IMG/VR virus record: IMGVR_UViG_2579778842_000003
From: a virus
Lineage: Duplodnaviria > Heunggongvirae > Uroviricota > Caudoviricetes
Strand: one strand, 5' to 3'
DNA length: 64,000 nucleotides
The position numbers and the translations under genes were made by a program. Below are positions 47,947 through 64,000 of this stretch, one piece after another; positions within the stretch are counted from its first letter, which is position 1; each line of letters opens with the position of its first letter. The notes beneath the pieces are model-generated. The model had not been told where the DNA came from and made no database searches. It was given only the letters and a program-made list of their open reading frames with translations.

Positions 47947-47963
47947 ATAATTATTAGAGCAAT
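47947..47963 (-). promoter_or_regulatory. C1 operator (immC, Op99 cluster)
   Basis: ataattattagagcaat. Confidence 0.55.
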
Positions 47964-55907: not shown

Positions 55908-56982
55908 TCTATACAGGCATGTATAACAACAACGAGCCTATTAGCTGTCAACAACATTATTTTCTCAAATAAGAAAAAGCAGAAAACAAATTGTTTAAGA
56001 TCACAAATTGTGGCCTTGATGGAGGAGGGAGGCTTATTGGCTATGGCTAAAAATCAAATTAGACACTTCATGTTGCTGTAGCTCATCAAGATCCGAGGCC
56101 ACAAAACCTTTTCCGAAAAACTTCACAAGTAACTCACTAGCTGCATCATTGTCACCTATTACACGAAAGTCATACGGCAACGTCGCAAGTTGACGATGTA
56201 ATCCTGCTGAGAAAGTCGAATCTAACAGCGCCCAGAATTCCCACCGCAGGATAATACTCGCCTCTTAATACTGTATATATGTTGTTACGATATGTTTTTC
56301 TGTCTCTAAAAAAAGATGTTAATAGAATGCTAACCATTGAAGGGGATAAAAATATACAATTCCAACAAACGTTATTTTTAACAATTTTTTTCTTTGCGTT
56401 GACTTTCCCTGACACCTTGTCTGACCGAAGGTGCGCGAAAGCCACTTTTTCCTTCCTGAGTTATCCACAAAGTTATGCACTTGCAAGAGGGCCATTTTCT
56501 ACATATTGTGGTGGCTAACAGATGAAATGAATGTAGATTAATTGAAGATAAGGAGAAAATTTGAGATGCAATCATGACGTTAATAGATAGGGTCTGCATT
56601 ACAGACCCCACCCGCATCAAGGAATTAGCCGTTCCCTGATGTTTTTCCGAAAACATGTGCCGTAAGCTCACGTTAACGACTTTCATTCACCGAATCCAAC
56701 TATATAGGGGTTGGGTTTCTACGTCAACGTGAGCAAGTGCACCTTTACATTTGACAAGGAACCACCTGAATGAACGCTTTTTTTCAGTTCCTGAGTGCAT
56801 TTTTAGATGCGCCTGTTATTAGCCAGATTCTGGCTATTATCCTCATCATCGTTTTGATTTTGCTTTTAAGGTCAGTAAAAAATGGAATTATGCACTGGCT
56901 TACTTAATGTTTCAGTGAAACATTAAAATATCCTTGATGAGGAAACAATCATTTTCTGTATGTGCTGGTGGGCACCTGTAGT

Positions 56983-57345
56983 TCAGCTTTCGTTGGCATT
57001 TAACTTCGTCTTTGCTTTCTCCACCAGCAACTTCCAGATGCCTATTTCATTAGCAGCCGCCTTGATGGCGGCATAAAAAGCATCTTGCTGATCGTAACGC
57101 TGGATCTGTTTTTTCAGTTTTGCCTCCACCAATTTAATTTCATTACGTGCTTTCTGAATCCGCATCACCGCCCGGTTACGTCTGTTCTTGTATAGCGTGT
57201 TAATCTCTGACAATTGCTTTAATTTACCAGCCTGACTGCGGATTATCGCCTCCCTGGCTTCTGCCGTGCGTCTCATCTGATCTCTTAAGAGTTCACCGTT
57301 TTCGATAATTCTTTCAAGGTGTTTGATGTGATCTGCAACTCTCAT
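56983..57345 (-). CDS. Coiled-coil protein
   Basis: 120 aa; overlapping start with the upstream gene. Confidence 0.5.
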   Translation of the reverse strand: MRVADHIKHLERIIENGELLRDQMRRTAEAREAIIRSQAGKLKQLSEINTLYKNRRNRAVMRIQKARNEIKLVEAKLKKQIQRYDQQDAFYAAIKAAANEIGIWKLLVEKAKTKLNANES

Positions 57346-58016
57346 ACTTCACCCTCGCTTGTATCACCAGCGTCCACCAACGACAATAAAGCCCTGGCCA
57401 TCTTATGAACCAACAGTGCATCAATAATGCCAAGCGTATGCCCCGGCTTAATGTTTAATGCTGCCTCAAGATGACACCTTTCCAGACCGCTTTTCTCGGC
57501 TTGTTTATGATGATATGGCGTAATAACGTCGCCCAAAACACGGCTAATTCTTTCTCGTAATTGCTGGGTGCCAGCACACTTGATCGCTGTATCGTGGAGA
57601 CGGTTAACCAGTTCGCGATAAACATGCGGTTTAATGCGGATACGTTCACCGGTGACGCCCTTTCCTGGCCCTGGCACCGAACTATCCGGAATATCCGGAT
57701 AGTTGCCAGCCTCGTAAGCTACCCGCAGCCAGTGCATGAATGTTTCAGTAGACACACAACCACAGTCCACATCGATTTTTCCGCGTTGCTGTTCCAGCCA
57801 CTGCTCAAAATTCAATCTACACGTATTACTTTCATGTTGCTCTTTTTGTCTTAAGGCCAGCACCTGTTGGGCCAGTTCCAGAACGATACCGGGTGACGCT
57901 AACCTCTCAAATTCCAATAAATAGTTTGCGTCAGGATGACAAGTAGCCTCGCCTGCAAAAAATACCAATTGCTGTAAGTATGCTGTCGTTAGAGTAGTCA
58001 TTTCTTTTTGCGCCAT
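57342..58016 (-). CDS. Hypothetical protein
   Basis: 224 aa; operon context. Confidence 0.55.
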   Translation of the reverse strand: MAQKEMTTLTTAYLQQLVFFAGEATCHPDANYLLEFERLASPGIVLELAQQVLALRQKEQHESNTCRLNFEQWLEQQRGKIDVDCGCVSTETFMHWLRVAYEAGNYPDIPDSSVPGPGKGVTGERIRIKPHVYRELVNRLHDTAIKCAGTQQLRERISRVLGDVITPYHHKQAEKSGLERCHLEAALNIKPGHTLGIIDALLVHKMARALLSLVDAGDTSEGEV

Positions 58017-58372
58017 TTCTTTTCACATTCCTTAGTCCATTTTTCAATGTTCATTTTGGCAATATCAGTCATTCCATCACCTAAGAAATACTTTTTCCGG
58101 TACGTCTTGCACTTAAACCACACTACAACAGCCACCAGCCAGAAAATAAAAGGCCATACAGCAATACCAACGACAGCCGCGATAAAGCCCAATAGCCATA
58201 AATGAAGCTCTCCAACTTCTGTTTCCGGCAATATTCTTAAAGAATTAAACAGCAGGCTGAACGAATGGTCGTATGCATTGGCAGTATAAGACATGCAATC
58301 CATATAATTAAAGTCATAGCCTGCGGCTGCCGCCCATAATGGGCGGTCAAGAAAATGTTTTAGTGTCATCAT
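57998..58372 (-). CDS. Membrane protein
   Basis: 124 aa; TM helix (LWLLGFIAAVVGIAVWPFIFWLVAVVVWF) and Lys-rich tail. Confidence 0.5.
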   Translation of the reverse strand: MMTLKHFLDRPLWAAAAGYDFNYMDCMSYTANAYDHSFSLLFNSLRILPETEVGELHLWLLGFIAAVVGIAVWPFIFWLVAVVVWFKCKTYRKKYFLGDGMTDIAKMNIEKWTKECEKKWRKKK

Positions 58373-58378
58373 ATAAAT

Positions 58379-58672
58379 TTAAGGTTCAGACCAGTTATCT
58401 TCAATAGCAATGCTTAATCTTTGTAGCCATTCTGCTAATTTCAGCATTGCTTCTCTTTCGCTTAAACCACGAGGAAAATCATCAAGCGAAATTGTTGGCT
58501 TGAATCCCCCGCAATTATCCATTTCAACTGTCAGATTTTGTTCCAGCACGGTATTTCTTACGCGGCTATTGTGCCGGAGCAAATATACTGAGCATGATTT
58601 ATTGGTTTTGTGGTCTAGCTTATATTCGGTAAGTATCATCTGGCTTTTGCCATGATTATTACCTCTCCACAT
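58379..58672 (-). CDS. Hypothetical protein
   Basis: Start taken at MWRGNNHG after a GAGG RBS; track ORF extends to 58768. Confidence 0.4.
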   Translation of the reverse strand: MWRGNNHGKSQMILTEYKLDHKTNKSCSVYLLRHNSRVRNTVLEQNLTVEMDNCGGFKPTISLDDFPRGLSEREAMLKLAEWLQRLSIAIEDNWSEP

Positions 58673-58850
58673 ACTTACCTCACTTAATAAAACAACTCCA
58701 TGCGTAGTTGATGATTTTTTCCCACGTAATATAAATCTGCACTCCGGCAGTAAAACCAAAGCCAACAATTGCTGAAAAAATCAAAACATTTACTTTTGAC
58801 ATTATAAACTTTCTCTCGGTGTCGTAGGTGATAGCACCATAATTGATAAT

Positions 58851-59084
58851 TTAGTGAGTTAGCAGTTCCATTTTTTTGATGATTTCCGCATGAGCATCAT
58901 CGTTATCAACACTTAGCTCGTTTAATGCTTCTCGCACTACATCAACTTCTTCAGGCTGAAAGAAGTCGTCGCGGTAATCACCAAATAGAACCGAAACCAG
59001 CCTGCTACCAGCAACATCAAGATTGGCGCTAACAGGTGGCTCTTTGCCATCCTCAAATTCGACTACAAAAGTTAATTTTCCCAT
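58851..59084 (-). CDS. Small acidic protein
   Basis: 77 aa. Confidence 0.45.
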   Translation of the reverse strand: MGKLTFVVEFEDGKEPPVSANLDVAGSRLVSVLFGDYRDDFFQPEEVDVVREALNELSVDNDDAHAEIIKKMELLTH

Positions 59085-59160
59085 CGTTACCCCCAGAAGA
59101 TAAAAATAGCGGCAATCGCCATAGCTACGCCTACAATCGCAAATGCTTCAGGCCAGCTTA

Positions 59161-59421
59161 TTACCTCACCTCCAGTCTCCATACCGCCTGACCAATCCGG
59201 CTGGCATGGGTATCTTTGGATACTGTTCCATCTTTAGCCAGCTCCATAAGAATTTTGCGCAAATCTGCCGAACGCCATTCTTCATCAGGAAATTCCTTCT
59301 CCATTGCCAACCGCAGATTCCAGGTTGCTATCGTGAATGGATATTCCCCGCCGAGAGCTTTCTCTTGCAGGGCAGCACGGGAACGTATCACCTGCAAAAC
59401 CTTCTCTTTTACATCCATCAT
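59161..59421 (-). CDS. Hypothetical protein
   Basis: 86 aa from MMDVKEKVL; ATG overlaps the upstream stop (ATGA). Confidence 0.45.
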   Translation of the reverse strand: MMDVKEKVLQVIRSRAALQEKALGGEYPFTIATWNLRLAMEKEFPDEEWRSADLRKILMELAKDGTVSKDTHASRIGQAVWRLEVR

Positions 59422-60605
59422 TTTGCCTCCTGCGGCGGTTCTGGTAGCGGCATCCAGTGTGATGGTATCCACGACGCACCAGGTATTACCCACCCATCAT
59501 TAGCGTCAGGATGCCCCGGGATGTAAGTCGCCCATTTCATTCGCCAGTCACCTTTCCTGTCAAACTCCCTGGCAACAAGAACGGCTGTTTTGGTATCCGG
59601 CATTCGCTCACTACAGCTTATCCAACTATCCGGAATTACCGGAAAGTTGCGCATTGCGACCTTTAATGCCTCATAGAAGCACTCTTTCAAATTGTTGAAC
59701 TGACACCCATTTAGAGGACCGTGTTCAGTCAGCATGTTGTGTAATTTCCATGCCGCGTCGTTTACTGCGTTGGATGACATGGGAGGCAACTTGTAAGCCT
59801 GGCTTACAGGCTCGGAACCATGAAGAATGGCGGCGCGGCAGGCATCCTCTACGCCCTTAACTGCATCTGCGCAGTAGTTATAGCGATTGCATTCCACTAA
59901 CTTCTGCTTGAGATTTTCAATTGCTTGTGCGACATCAGCCTGTATTGGTGGAACGGCTGTCTGCTGCTCTCGAACGTCATTAGTCGCTATCGGTTCTGCT
60001 GCCAACTGACTGGCATATTTGTTAATGGTAACGATAAGCTCTTGCTCAGCCTCATCCAGACAATCACCGATACCTCGTCTGTCGCCGTCAAAATCATCGA
60101 AATCAGCACGAACTCTGGCAAACTTCAGGATTGCGGACAACACCTCACCAGGAATTACCGGAGAGTTGGTTGACGTTTCCGCAATTTCCCGAAAATTATT
60201 GGTTGACGCATTCGCGTTTTTCCGAAAGTTTCCGGCATGAAGCATAGCCGCGCGGCAGGCGTTCCAGCCTCTCACCTCTGCAATAGCGGCAACAGCATCG
60301 ACCGCGTACATGCTAAGAGGGTTAGGCATTGGTTTTTCTTCCGGTACTACTGGCGCTGGAGGGGCAGTGTAAAGCTGGTGCGTTCCATCAGGTAGCGAGT
60401 GACCCACATACTCACCGACCCCGTCAATACACATGCCCCCATCTTCAACAATGCATTCCGCTACAGGCTCTGCTTCCAGTGATGCCAGCGCAATCCGTGC
60501 CAGCTCTTCCGCTTCTTCTGCTGGCAGTACAACGTTGCTACCAGGTCCGTATGTTTCGCGCCACTCCTTGATTGTCAGCAGTCGCTCTTTGGTAATAGTG
60601 ATCAT
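59418..60605 (-). CDS. DUF551-like phage protein
   Basis: 395 aa; C-terminal Trp-rich motif ending WMPLPEPP. Confidence 0.55.
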   Translation of the reverse strand: MITITKERLLTIKEWRETYGPGSNVVLPAEEAEELARIALASLEAEPVAECIVEDGGMCIDGVGEYVGHSLPDGTHQLYTAPPAPVVPEEKPMPNPLSMYAVDAVAAIAEVRGWNACRAAMLHAGNFRKNANASTNNFREIAETSTNSPVIPGEVLSAILKFARVRADFDDFDGDRRGIGDCLDEAEQELIVTINKYASQLAAEPIATNDVREQQTAVPPIQADVAQAIENLKQKLVECNRYNYCADAVKGVEDACRAAILHGSEPVSQAYKLPPMSSNAVNDAAWKLHNMLTEHGPLNGCQFNNLKECFYEALKVAMRNFPVIPDSWISCSERMPDTKTAVLVAREFDRKGDWRMKWATYIPGHPDANDGWVIPGASWIPSHWMPLPEPPQEAK

Positions 60606-61117
60606 GCCGCGTTTCCTTCTTTCTTATTAACAATTACACCGTCATATATTTCATTAAGGTGCCCTCTCAACTCCATGCGCCTTAATGCAGATAACATGTA
60701 ATCGCATTCAACCTGCTTATTCCCAATAAAAGGTTTATCTTCAGGGTTACCCCAACAGCAATTCCCCTTGGGCCATCCATGTACTTTCCGTACTCTTCCG
60801 TTAACAACGTGAAGTAATCCCCAGCCAGGAGGTAAATCCTCAATTGAAATAATTCCCGGCTCACTAATAAAGAATCGCCAGTCGCCCATGCCAAGTGAGG
60901 GATTTTTACGGAAACGCTTTTTTCTATCTGCCAACAAATCAGCACGAGAACACTTCGCCTCTATCAGGCATGATGCTGAATTTCTGAATCCCATAGCATC
61001 TGGCTGTTCTCCGGTACTGGTTACAGCTATAAAGCGGTCATGAAAACAAACCTTGAACCCGTTGCGCTTAAGGAACTTGTACGCAATCTGACAGAGTTCG
61101 CGGTGTGTTAACGCCAT
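60602..61117 (-). CDS. Putative PD-(D/E)xK-family nuclease
   Basis: Start at MALTHRELCQ; motifs ...QPDAMGF...CLIEAKCSRADL (D...E-x-K). Confidence 0.45.
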   Translation of the reverse strand: MALTHRELCQIAYKFLKRNGFKVCFHDRFIAVTSTGEQPDAMGFRNSASCLIEAKCSRADLLADRKKRFRKNPSLGMGDWRFFISEPGIISIEDLPPGWGLLHVVNGRVRKVHGWPKGNCCWGNPEDKPFIGNKQVECDYMLSALRRMELRGHLNEIYDGVIVNKKEGNAA

Positions 61118-61118
61118 A

Positions 61119-61751
61119 TCACTCTCCTTTGATGCGAATGCCAGCGGCGCGTGGCACATTAACTTCCACGATGCGCACAGTTGGTTTGTACATCTCAATC
61201 GCAGTCAGCCAGTCAGCGCCAGTCATGCGCTTTTCTGCATCGCCATTAGTCCACTTAACCGGTACACCAATAGCCTTCATCGCGATTTCTATTTCCCCGG
61301 CAATGGCGCTTTTTCCGCAACCAGTAAAACCAGATACAACGACCAGAACTTCACCTTTGGCTGGTTTTATTTCCCGCGCTTCCAGTTCTGCTATGCGCTT
61401 ACTTCCATCCGAGATAACACCTTCGTAATACTCACGCTGCTCGTTGAGTTTTGATTTTGCTTCCTCAAGCTCAACTCTCAGCTTCCCTACCGTTAGCGCA
61501 ATATCCTCGTTCTCCTGGTCACGGCGTTTGATGTATTGCTGGTTTCTTTCCCGTTCATCCAGTAGTGCCAGCACGGTTTCTGGTCCGGCCAGAAATTTGA
61601 AGGCGTTGAGCGCATCAATATCCACACCGTAATCTTTAAGTTCCTGTTCACTTAACAAATCATCATCAGCTGGCAACATTAACAGGCGTTCCATTGCTGG
61701 AATTGCACGTTCCGCCGCCTCACGCAGTGCCTGATAGTCAATCTTGCTCAC
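61119..61751 (-). CDS. P-loop NTPase with N-terminal coiled-coil
   Basis: GTG start after an AAGGAGG RBS; Walker A GFTGCGKS. Confidence 0.5.
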   Translation of the reverse strand: MSKIDYQALREAAERAIPAMERLLMLPADDDLLSEQELKDYGVDIDALNAFKFLAGPETVLALLDERERNQQYIKRRDQENEDIALTVGKLRVELEEAKSKLNEQREYYEGVISDGSKRIAELEAREIKPAKGEVLVVVSGFTGCGKSAIAGEIEIAMKAIGVPVKWTNGDAEKRMTGADWLTAIEMYKPTVRIVEVNVPRAAGIRIKGE

Positions 61752-61987
61752 TGGTTGCCTCCTTGGCGGAGTTGCGCTGCGATGCATGAAAAAAAAGACT
61801 CCCGAGTGTGACAGTTAAGAGCTGGTGCGAACGCCGCGTTAAGAACGGCGGCATCACAGCCGTCATCAATATAGAGCGCAATTTTTTTCTCCAGGCGCGC
61901 TTTGGCTTCCTGCAACTGCATACCCCGGCACGCACGCGGGATATAATCAGCAATTTGAGCGATAGCTTTTTCGTTCTGTTTAAACAT
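61748..61987 (-). CDS. Small hypothetical protein
   Basis: 79 aa; ATG overlaps the upstream stop (ATGTTTAA). Confidence 0.45.
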   Translation of the reverse strand: MFKQNEKAIAQIADYIPRACRGMQLQEAKARLEKKIALYIDDGCDAAVLNAAFAPALNCHTRESFFSCIAAQLRQGGNQ

Positions 61988-62183
61988 GCTTCACCTCGAT
62001 AGGCTTGATGGTGTCTAACAGCAGTCGGCGGCGCGTATTTTCTGCAAAATGGCGGCGCCCAGTTTCTTTGTGGTAAAACTCGTTTTTGCCGACGACCCAC
62101 ATCCGCTCTGTTTGGTGCAGTTTTTTTACCTTCGGGCCATCTTTGGTGATCACGGTACCGGTATGGGTTTTTACGATTGTCAT
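61980..62183 (-). CDS. Small hypothetical protein
   Basis: 67 aa; overlaps neighbours on both sides. Confidence 0.45.
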   Translation of the reverse strand: MTIVKTHTGTVITKDGPKVKKLHQTERMWVVGKNEFYHKETGRRHFAENTRRRLLLDTIKPIEVKHV

Positions 62184-63058
62184 TCCACTACCTCTTCGAA
62201 TTTCAACTCCAATTGGTCACCCCAGATTTCACATGATTCGGAACACGAACCAGTATCAAACCGCTTGGCCAGCACCATCGCCTGATACAAATTTCTGTAG
62301 TCACTGTCGGCATACATTCTGGCAATCCCGTCAAGCGTCAGGTGGCCACGGTACATAACGTCTTTACCTGTTCTGCGCTGACCATCCCTGACGTGTTTGC
62401 CTGTAACCAGTTCATTAAAAACCCGCATCAGACCTGGTTCGTCTTTACATGCAAGCCCCAGCTTTTGCGTTGACTTTTTGATGCAAAAAACACAGTTCCC
62501 GAGGTGCTCCGGGATTTGCAAATCAAAAGGTTGTTTTCGCCACCACCGGATAACATCCGACTTATCAAAATCTGACAGTTCGGCAAGATACCGGACGCCC
62601 GGTTTCGGTTTCAGCCTACGGGGTTCGTCCGCACGAATACCGAGCCATGTGATGTAATTCCCTCGCCCAAAATGATCATCGCAATATTTCGTGAAAGGGG
62701 TGAGTTTTAGCCTGTCGGTACAGAACGCGCCGCCGATGTATGGCGTACCGTACTTTTTAACCATGTCCATAAACGGTTTAAGCACCGGCATTCGCGTCTG
62801 AATATCCTTTGGTTCCCATTCCGTATAACCATTTGGCTGCCCAAGTTCTGGATTTATATCGACCTGCAACACCGTTAGCGGTACGTTCCAGAACTTCACA
62901 ACCTCACGAATAAAGCGATACGTCAGAGGATGTTCACAGCCGGTATCCATAAAAATGAAATGGACGCTAGCGCCAGCTTTTCGCTGTGCTTCCATCAGAT
63001 GAACGAGATAAGCCGATGTTCGTCCACCTGAAAAGCTGACAACTTGATGCATACTCAC
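62180..63058 (-). CDS. pap: PAPS-reductase-like PP-loop ATP pyrophosphatase
   Basis: 292 aa; PP-loop motif SFSGGRTS near the N-terminus; Cys-rich C-terminus. Symbol from recalled P1 nomenclature, not verified. Confidence 0.65.
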   Translation of the reverse strand: MSMHQVVSFSGGRTSAYLVHLMEAQRKAGASVHFIFMDTGCEHPLTYRFIREVVKFWNVPLTVLQVDINPELGQPNGYTEWEPKDIQTRMPVLKPFMDMVKKYGTPYIGGAFCTDRLKLTPFTKYCDDHFGRGNYITWLGIRADEPRRLKPKPGVRYLAELSDFDKSDVIRWWRKQPFDLQIPEHLGNCVFCIKKSTQKLGLACKDEPGLMRVFNELVTGKHVRDGQRRTGKDVMYRGHLTLDGIARMYADSDYRNLYQAMVLAKRFDTGSCSESCEIWGDQLELKFEEVVE

Positions 63059-63061
63059 GGT

Positions 63062-63790
63062 TTATTCCTGAATGCGCTTAAACTCGATTACCCACACCCA
63101 GGGATTAGCGTTCCAGCTTTCTTCACCATAGATGGATTCCCACAGGCGCTGGAACGCAACCTTGGCCATTGCGAAATCCCCCTTGGGAGTAAGGAATGTT
63201 CCCGGGTGATCAGGAAGCAAACTTCCAGCAGGCGGAACGCCCTCATCCCTTGCATCGCATTCGCTGATATCGTTCAACCGCTCAACGCGCACGTTGGTAA
63301 TTTCCAACAGGATGCGTGATGCCCATCGCGGCATGTGAATTGATGGACGCCACCCACCATCAAACTTTTCATTCACTGTGTGAGGTTTCCAGTCGGCATC
63401 ATCTGGTATCGACCATAAACCGTAATCACCAGGCTTTTGCTCACAACTGGCCCGATAAATCCTTGCTGCGTTCTTCTCATCGCCACGACAAAGGTTGTCG
63501 TTCCAGTCCACACTGCAACCATCTTCATTGCCTAATATCGCCCATGTTTCACGAACCCAAATTCGATCGCCGACGATACCAAAGGGGCAATTGAAAACAC
63601 TGCTTACACCATCAGCCCCGTACCACTGAAAACCTGCACCAATTTTTCTAACCATCACTGGTGCTTCTGGACCAACTTCCGCAGGCTGATTTTTCATTAT
63701 CCGCCGCGTCTGCGTTTTCCTTCCTTCGAGGATGGCCCGGACCATCTCATCGTTGAAAATCATGCCGCGCTCTTTCACTTCGCCTTTCAT
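63062..63790 (-). CDS. Hypothetical phage protein
   Basis: 242 aa; first large gene of the C1-controlled operon. Confidence 0.55.
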   Translation of the reverse strand: MKGEVKERGMIFNDEMVRAILEGRKTQTRRIMKNQPAEVGPEAPVMVRKIGAGFQWYGADGVSSVFNCPFGIVGDRIWVRETWAILGNEDGCSVDWNDNLCRGDEKNAARIYRASCEQKPGDYGLWSIPDDADWKPHTVNEKFDGGWRPSIHMPRWASRILLEITNVRVERLNDISECDARDEGVPPAGSLLPDHPGTFLTPKGDFAMAKVAFQRLWESIYGEESWNANPWVWVIEFKRIQE

Positions 63791-63799
63791 GCATCCCCC

Positions 63800-63886
63800 T
63801 TACCCATGCGCGACGATGCCGCCAAAAGTGATAGAGAACAGCCAGAAATAGATCGCGGCCATAATGATTTTGAATGCCGTGTTCAT
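63800..63886 (-). CDS. 28-aa hydrophobic leader peptide
   Basis: MNTAFKIIMAAIYFWLFSITFGGIVAHG with an AGGAG RBS; below the ORF-track cutoff; just downstream of the C1 operator. Confidence 0.3.
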   Translation of the reverse strand: MNTAFKIIMAAIYFWLFSITFGGIVAHG

Positions 63887-63968
63887 ATTTTCAGCTCCTG
63901 TGATTGATTGGATACATGCCGCGCCTTGCGGCATGTTTTTATTTTCACTTTCTCTGTTTTAAAAATCA

Positions 63969-63985
63969 AGATTTATTAGAGCAAT
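63969..63985 (-). promoter_or_regulatory. C1 operator at the head of the minus-strand operon
   Basis: agatttattagagcaat, 16/17 to the operator consensus. Confidence 0.6.
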
Positions 63986-64000
63986 TATTGTTGATGAAGA

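Follow-up and report, generated by a model that had tools for sequence, protein, structure and literature searches.

An apparent Op88 (OpmgT) operon of a P1-type plasmid prophage with a mosaic lambdoid cargo and a NinC-family counter-defence candidate

The window analysed here is a whole stretch of 64,000 nucleotides (nt) of viral DNA (Caudoviricetes; IMG/VR record IMGVR_UViG_2579778842_000003), in which a string of minus-strand genes starts from a C1 repressor operator at 63969-63985 and includes a PP-loop enzyme of the NinC family, a small P-loop domain and a nuclease-like protein. Plasmid unnamed3 of Escherichia coli W25K (NZ_CP091040.1; IncY; 97.7 kb) is 100% identical to the window over 59000-64000, and 1,291 plasmids, mainly from E. 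coli, match the same interval in part. One flank of the string holds the phage P1 genes doc/phd, humD, the late-promoter activator and terminase, and the other holds homologues of P1 pap, pmgS and ppp. On the basis of the plasmid identity and these flanking genes the window is assigned to a P1-type (Punavirus) plasmid prophage. The features of P1 used for comparison were taken from its GenBank annotation. The string is very probably the already-known Op88 (OpmgT) early operon of P1, with modules that are independent of one another.

The operator (minus strand; ATTGCTCTAATAAATCT, read 63985..63969) matches 16 of the 17 positions of the asymmetric 17-bp C1 consensus ATTGCTCTAATAAATTT. It is identical to P1 OpmgT, formerly Op88; the P1 reference record annotates the same 17 bases as a monovalent C1 operator under these two names and refers to older sequence entries for Op88. 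The operator starts on the final base of the stop codon of pap, the gene upstream. Two predicted sigma-70 promoters were mapped from the P1 annotation onto the minus strand, P2pmgT (-35 box at 63984-63979, -10 box at 63961-63956) and P1pmgT (-35 box at 63969-63964, -10 box at 63946-63941), and the operator overlaps both -35 boxes within a region (63941..63984) whose DNA is identical to that of P1. Predicted control by a 16/17 C1 operator at the head of the minus-strand genes, as proposed in a preliminary description of this DNA, is supported by an identical P1 site that stands in the same DNA with annotated (predicted) promoters. Generic promoter and terminator scans performed no better than chance, and P1pmgT and P2pmgT were not among the promoters that they listed. 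Over the whole window, 9 operator-like sites with up to three mismatches were observed, compared with 0.41 expected by chance. The other eight, with one to three mismatches, lie at 2606, 4267, 31729, 35578, 47947, 48030, 48494 and 52767, and those at 47947 and 48030 form a close divergent pair.

Between the promoters and the first large gene lies a 5' untranslated leader with a stem-loop of 9-10 bp (63914-63936, minus strand; RNA fold -18.3 kcal/mol, z -3.1). When read on the plus strand, this hairpin has a T-run after the stem and resembles an intrinsic terminator facing the operon. It is followed by an unannotated hydrophobic open reading frame (ORF) of 28 amino acids (aa) (63800-63886, minus strand; MNTAFKIIMAAIYFWLFSITFGGIVAHG), whose ATG is preceded at 8 nt by a strong ribosome-binding site, AGGAG. 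This ORF is 100% conserved in P1, in the P1-like phage 813R1 and in the P1-like loci of IMG/VR; the label of "leader peptide" given to it earlier is unproven. A second 28-aa ORF with a TTG start (63883-63969) was rejected for want of support. In the alignment with P1 and 813R1, the operator, promoter region and leader were as in P1 except for one base just past the leader hairpin. Even where the next gene of an IMG/VR P1-like locus was an allele of only 46% identity, the operator and the 28-aa ORF were still 100% identical, and a recombination boundary was therefore placed there.

The genes that follow are all on the minus strand. They encode a full-length PmgT-type protein of 242 aa (63062-63790); the NinC-family enzyme, which resembles reductases of 3'-phosphoadenosine 5'-phosphosulfate (PAPS) (62180-63058; 292 aa from a GTG start or 290 aa from the ATG at 63052); two small proteins, s67 (61980-62183; 67 aa; PHROG 1226), whose ATG overlaps the NinC stop codon, and s79 (61748-61987; 79 aa; an ORF matched to PHROG 1344); an Ead/Ea22-family protein of 222 aa (61119-61787), composed of an N-terminal/coiled-coil part and a variable C-terminal domain, here a mini P-loop domain of about 73 residues (61143-61361; GFTGCGKS); a 171-aa nuclease-like protein of the PD-(D/E)xK fold (60602-61117); a 395-aa protein with a C-terminal DUF551 domain (59418-60605); and an 86-aa protein (59161-59421; PHROG 2814), whose ATG overlaps the DUF551 stop codon. 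Junctions range from a 9-nt gap to a 40-nt overlap, and ATGA-type overlaps occur at three of them, namely NinC/s67, nuclease/DUF551 and DUF551/86-aa gene. The tight packing reported earlier was therefore confirmed with all the listed proteins in place, but the string does not end at 59161 as had been stated; it continues on the same strand to at least 56983, through a 77-aa ORF, a 124-aa membrane-like ORF, a 224-aa ORF and a PmgV homologue (56983-59084 altogether, with the PmgV homologue at 56983-57345). In PHROGs, every protein of the string except NinC fell into families of "unknown function"; NCBIfam offered no family for any of them and only weak PP-loop matches; and NinC was the only one matched in PADLOC.

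Comparison with P1 revealed how its annotated pmgT and pmgU genes arose. Window 63096-64000 is 98.5% identical to P1 and window 56362-57717 is 94% identical, and the two P1 segments abut at a single coordinate, near 85182 of NC_005856 and inside the annotated pmgT, where P1 lacks the intervening 5.4 kb (57718-63095). P1 PmgT (310 aa) consists of residues 1-232 of the 242-aa protein followed by an out-of-frame tail from the middle of the 224-aa gene, and P1 PmgU is the C-terminal 111 aa of the 224-aa protein. The sequence GGGT is common to both junction sequences as a microhomology. The 242-aa protein has more than 8,000 homologues of 224-261 aa, and since its length is typical of so large a family, the P1 state was taken as derived. 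As read from these alignments, laboratory P1 is the form that lost 57718-63095, and pmgT and pmgU are deletion remnants, a small point that appears new. Otherwise the DNA of the two operons agrees, completely or at 98.5% identity, in the operator, the leader, the small ORF and the first 232 codons of the first large gene, and they have the same flanks, with pap upstream and pmgU/pmgV, upfM-O, hot, humD and phd/doc downstream; they differ in the missing segment and in the truncated fusions of P1, which stand against intact 242-aa and 224-aa genes in the window. As for the 242-aa protein itself, some sources name its homologues "ASCH domain-containing protein"; Pfam ASCH (PF04266) did not match the window protein and matched 13 of 19 homologues weakly (best E 0.0084), which suggests that it is probably ASCH-like. 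PDB searches with the protein and with its family profile returned nothing significant, and a literature search on pmgT retrieved only unrelated uses of the string.

The DNA that is absent from P1 is related to lambdoid phages. Parts of the 59.4-63.06 kb interval share 91-94% identity with the early-left "ea" region of Shiga toxin (Stx)-converting phages and of Shigella phage Ss-VASD, in which a block located between the recombination genes and int/xis has the same order (gp11-gp16), i.e., PAPS reductase, two small genes, Ead/Ea22, a 185-aa gene and DUF551. Phage 813R1 has the same flanks with other middle genes, has no PAPS reductase and keeps the two small genes. In PLSDB, the 242-aa gene (at least 95% identity) was found in 169 plasmids and the PP-loop gene (at least 90%) in 65. 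GC content did not set the cargo apart. Nearly identical NinC genes (98-99%) stand in IMG/VR loci behind ASCH/PmgT alleles of 46, 69, 83 and 100% identity, and the C1 operator match is missing in four of these loci. This variety of alleles in front of NinC probably reflects one insertion slot common to diverged P1-related backbones. A functional adjacency of ASCH and NinC was considered and rejected in favour of this shared slot, because no ASCH gene adjoins the NinC genes of lambdoid phages and of nin regions. According to notes in the P1 record (84263-84482 and 87969-88647), the DNA after Op88 and at phd/doc is homologous to the flanks of EcoDXXI and R124/3, which are described there as plasmid-borne type I hsd restriction loci; from this homology the slot may hold quite different cargo, alternately a restriction-modification system.

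The PP-loop protein, singled out earlier by its SFSGGRTS motif, was confirmed as such by its match to Pfam PAPS_reduct (PF01507; 37.7 bits compared with a gathering score of 22.5). Its identity with lambda NinC is 79.6% across 98% of its length, and more than 5,000 NinC-family homologues were found. Among 42 sequences of 51-92% identity, the invariant positions included S8-x-S-G-G-R-x-S15 and D38-T-G-x-E-H43 as well as six cysteines (C113, C126, C189-x-x-C192 and C272-x-x-x-C276). The AlphaFold model (predicted local distance difference test score, pLDDT, 86) shows a PP-loop Rossmann-like alpha/beta/alpha fold with a disordered Cys-rich C-terminal tail. Lambda NinC (ORF-290 of the nin region) is of the same size, carries the same invariant motifs and is likewise early and non-essential; however, it occupies a slot between NinB and NinD-H upstream of Q, whereas the window gene belongs to a C1-controlled P1 operon beside "ea"-region genes. 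Both lambda ninC and P1 pmgT/U/V have been reported as dispensable for plaque formation. Distant NinC homologues (29-36% identity) were also recorded in 137 Acinetobacter plasmids, and most of the 140 matching records are typed conjugative; in the one examined, the A. baumannii plasmid NZ_CP020589.1 (5852-9557), such a homologue adjoins a second gene of the PAPS-reductase family, an orphan N6 DNA methylase, an H-NS gene and a thermonuclease.

Several more specific assignments of the enzyme were rejected. An assimilatory PAPS reductase of the CysH type is not supported by NCBIfam PRK02090 (21.9 bits against a cut-off of 154). The C-terminal tail of NinC is GSCSESCE; CysH proteins typically have a C-terminal ECGLH catalytic motif. 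Assignment to DndC failed on TIGR03183 (17.8 bits against 290.4) and on the lack of dndD/dndE neighbours in any context examined, and assignment to SspD failed on a partial profile alignment and on the lack of SspB/C-like neighbours in the loci examined. Among models of defence systems SspD was nonetheless the best match (E 1.8e-13), followed by BrxP (1.9e-4) and DndC (about 5e-4). NinC thus belongs to the same PAPS-reductase/PP-loop superfamily as DndC, SspD and BrxP, but scores far under their family cut-offs and has no DndD/E, SspB/C or BrxC neighbour.

A link of the family with DNA is suggested by its genetic company. Several NinC homologues are fused to a phage Dam methylase domain (PF05869), and among 66 loci that hold more distant homologues, 12 have a Dam gene directly upstream of NinC. 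The functional precedent for the family is a single transfer experiment, in which p0018, a PAPS-Dam fusion of Vibrio phage 44E38.1, was moved together with p0019 into a related phage, which thereby became resistant to the Dnd system of its host (Piel et al., bioRxiv 10.1101/2021.05.05.442762). The PP-loop domain of p0018 is homologous to the window NinC (55.5% identity over 96% of the query). The two differ in that p0018 has a C-terminal Dam domain and was moved with p0019, a DUF6475 protein, whereas the window NinC is a stand-alone protein without a neighbouring p0019 homologue. On the basis of the Vibrio phage, a survey of 2026 counts the PAPS reductases of phages among its candidates for anti-defence. 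The earlier suggestion that the PP-loop enzyme is connected with DNA modification or anti-restriction is therefore plausible, given the NinC family, its Dam fusions and adjacency and the anti-Dnd Vibrio homologue.

The protein described earlier as a P-loop NTPase carries a Walker A motif (GFTGCGKS), as had been noted, but the motif is confined to the C-terminal domain of an Ead/Ea22-family protein (PF13935; 130.8 bits against 27, E 7e-38, residues 14-136). Published work on Ea22 proteins describes pro-lysogenic tetramers in which a short N-terminal part is followed by a coiled coil and then by a C-terminal domain that varies. The window protein shares the N-terminal/coiled-coil region and the variable-domain architecture with the Ea22 of lambda and Stx phages, and differs in having the Walker A mini-domain at its C-terminus. 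This domain was found in 446 representatives by a full-library HMMER search, located at one end or the other (N- or C-terminal) of proteins 110-623 aa long, and in 149 homologous domains the Walker A motif (G29-x-T-G-x-G-K-S36) was invariant or nearly so, with V-R-I-V-E conserved as well. Pfam APS_kinase (adenosine 5'-phosphosulfate, APS) matched 17 of 17 members, at best with E 3.8e-5 and over the first ~40 profile positions only, and the PDB entries retrieved with a profile, namely UvrA, CysC and gluconate kinase, all had E above 0.03. The 222-aa protein had no significant hit in a PDB sequence search, and its C-terminal domain had no sequence match to any solved structure, including the deposited C-terminal domain of lambda Ea22. 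A complete P-loop NTPase core has a sheet of at least five strands with Walker B on a neighbouring strand. The Walker A motif is real and conserved, and NTPase activity of the ~73-residue unit is putative. In some Salmonella prophages (four homologues), the nuclease domain is fused behind the Ead/Ea22 N-terminal region. These fusions point to Ea22 scaffolds with interchangeable C-terminal modules, including the P-loop domain, the nuclease, DUF551 and lambda's own domain. The mini P-loop domain is a mobile unit for which Pfam has no model, another point that appears new.

The nuclease-like protein had been listed as a 198-aa ORF from a TTG; its fold stands, but its start is better placed at the ATG at 61117, giving 171 aa as in its homologues. 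D40, E53 and K55 (D...ExK) are invariant in 41 homologues, and the protein has the restriction-endonuclease-like alpha-beta-beta-beta-alpha-beta core. It was compared with restriction-endonuclease-like PD-(D/E)xK nucleases (Hjc, SdaI and Can2) and with SPO1766 (PDB 3dnx), the nearest solved structure, which we take to be a member of the MmcB-like family; it differs from these in having no significant sequence-family membership. Pfam and NCBIfam returned no match, and a PDB sequence search gave nothing significant. The family is narrow, with 196 proteins found, all confined to enterobacterial prophages. We consider the protein a putative stand-alone PD-(D/E)xK nuclease, and its relatives seem to constitute a SPO1766-like prophage nuclease family without a Pfam or NCBIfam model, a third point that appears new. 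The DUF551 protein, also named in the preliminary description, was verified by Pfam PF04448 (71.8 bits against 22, E 8.6e-20, residues 327-392). In the PLSDB gene table of NZ_CP091040.1, a table with known gaps, the nuclease is represented by no more than a 110-aa piece and the DUF551 protein by one of 61 aa; unlike these entries, the 171-aa and 395-aa ORFs of the window are both intact.

The partnership of the PP-loop enzyme with the P-loop protein and the nuclease that had been suggested earlier would make the three one DNA-modification pathway, for example a minimal phosphorothioation machine like DndC/D/E or SspD/C/B. In known phosphorothioate systems a protein with a PAPS-reductase domain is indeed accompanied by a P-loop NTPase and often by a nickase, all three kinds of domain occur here within one translationally coupled string, the mini-domain has weak matches of the APS-kinase type, and the best defence-model match of NinC is SspD. 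However, the three genes assort independently in IMG/VR contigs, a sample with many close relatives and some incomplete contigs. In 80 loci with NinC of at least 92% identity, the P-loop domain was present in 5, the nuclease in 15 and the two small genes in 45, and 29 loci had none of the other genes of the window. Around 64 more distant NinC genes (47-82% identity), the P-loop domain, the nuclease, s67 and s79 were all missing within 6 kb, and the other proteins of the string gave four weak matches at most, two for DUF551 and two for later small ORFs; distant NinC genes lie in a classical nin region, with NinB upstream in 42 of 66 and NinD, NinE, NinX, NinG, NinH and Q following. From the other side, loci anchored on the P-loop domain (n = 66) contained NinC once and the nuclease 14 times, and those anchored on the nuclease (n = 63) contained NinC in 7, the P-loop domain in 9 and s67/s79 in 11; s67 and s79 also occur without NinC in phage 813R1. 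No conserved partner of NinC was found in close or distant loci. The P-loop unit, moreover, has about 73 residues, compared with a full ABC-type DndD or an ORC/Cdc6-type SspC in the family descriptions, and is thus far too small to replace either; it was always on the Ea22 scaffold in its anchored loci (66/66) and occurs in many other architectures; and the APS-kinase matches cover the first ~40 positions, with the window's own domain at 16.3 bits, below the cut-off of 21.1. The low co-occurrence from all three anchors indicates that the cargo genes are not one system, and a joint pathway is very improbable.

Two rival readings of NinC itself were weighed. It could act off DNA, in tRNA modification of the TtcA, TtuA, NcsA or TilS type or by diverting host sulfur or nucleotide metabolism, with tuned translation or escape from anticodon nucleases as the benefit; its CxxC and further invariant cysteines resemble those of [4Fe-4S] tRNA thiolases, and P1-type phages carry tRNA genes of their own. 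Against this stand the recurrent fusion to, or position beside, phage Dam DNA methylases, the fact that the sole functional precedent concerns Dnd, a DNA-level defence, the DNA sulfurtransferase SspD as the best match in the defence library, and the lack of a recognisable RNA-binding domain (THUMP or PUA) in NinC, and we regard this role as unlikely. Alternatively, NinC may modify no DNA and serve as a decoy that binds or poisons the DndD/E, SspB/C or DndFGH complexes of the host or sequesters the sulfur relay. Such a decoy would suit a homologue of the DndC/SspD subunit that docks into host complexes and that has no specificity partners of its own, and it would fit the anti-Dnd precedent as well; but the PP-loop, DTGxEH and six cysteines are strictly invariant at 51-92% identity, which argues for catalysis rather than mere binding and leaves a decoy distinctly improbable. 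From the fold, the motifs, the Dam linkage and the Vibrio precedent we infer a counter-defence reaction on DNA. That NinC is an ATP-using enzyme which acts on phage DNA, gives it a sulfur-type modification and so protects it from restriction of the Dnd/Ssp type is put forward tentatively, with the chemistry and the target as the inferred parts. More doubtful, and on present evidence somewhat unlikely, is the broader proposal that the NinC family, including lambda NinC, comprises stand-alone DNA sulfur-modification enzymes that work by an ATP-activated mechanism of the iron-sulfur or persulfide kind, draw on host sulfur donors and mark phage or plasmid DNA or boost its marking by the host.

Several points tell against these interpretations, together with the composition of the contig sample given above. 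The SspD alignment covers the N-terminal half, at profile positions 2-121 of 277. Structure searches with NinC do not separate DNA-acting, tRNA-acting and small-molecule PP-loop enzymes, and the presumed iron-sulfur cluster is read solely from the invariant cysteines. The anti-Dnd effect of the Vibrio phage belongs to two genes jointly, p0018 with its Dam fusion and p0019 (bioRxiv 10.1101/2021.05.05.442762). In all established phosphorothioate systems, the PAPS-reductase-like protein requires as neighbours a large P-loop ATPase and a partner for DNA recognition or nicking, and no conserved ATPase or nicking partner of NinC was seen in the loci examined. At the operator, C1 binding and promoter activity are carried over from the P1 annotation and are both predicted for the window.

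Taken as a whole, an Op88 operon with independent lambdoid cargo and counter-defence by NinC is on balance the probable explanation of the locus. By analogy with P1, C1 bound to the 17-bp operator over the -35 boxes would keep the operon silent in the lysogen, and upon induction or infection the genes would be transcribed as one tightly coupled message. Behind the conserved operator, the small hydrophobic ORF and the PmgT/ASCH-like gene lies a recombination hot spot, which here contains about 5.4 kb of cargo that was deleted from laboratory P1, a mosaic of early-left "ea"/exo-xis genes of lambda-like phages; NinC has homologues in the nin region as well. The cargo genes are independent accessory modules and not one pathway. 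In this model NinC would be a PP-loop enzyme that uses ATP, has an iron-sulfur or cysteine-persulfide centre, works on phage DNA and probably installs or promotes a sulfur-type modification with host sulfur donors such as IscS, and the mark would shield the DNA from phosphorothioate-dependent Dnd/Ssp restriction. The Ea22-type protein would provide a coiled-coil scaffold with an exchangeable mini P-loop domain.

For the P1 family, these results correct the annotation of a classic phage, in that pmgT and pmgU of P1 are read as deletion remnants of full genes preserved in the window. They also point to the Op88 slot as a hot spot for cargo in P1-like plasmids, a group that commonly carries resistance genes in E. 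coli. For this locus the idea of a three-enzyme pathway is removed, and NinC, a lambda gene with thousands of homologues, becomes a concrete and testable candidate for counter-defence. If NinC does modify DNA alone, it would represent a route to sulfur-type modification that is both new and simpler, and would provide lambdoid phages and P1-type plasmids with a portable immunity to Dnd and Ssp without the ATPase and nickase partners of the known phosphorothioate systems.

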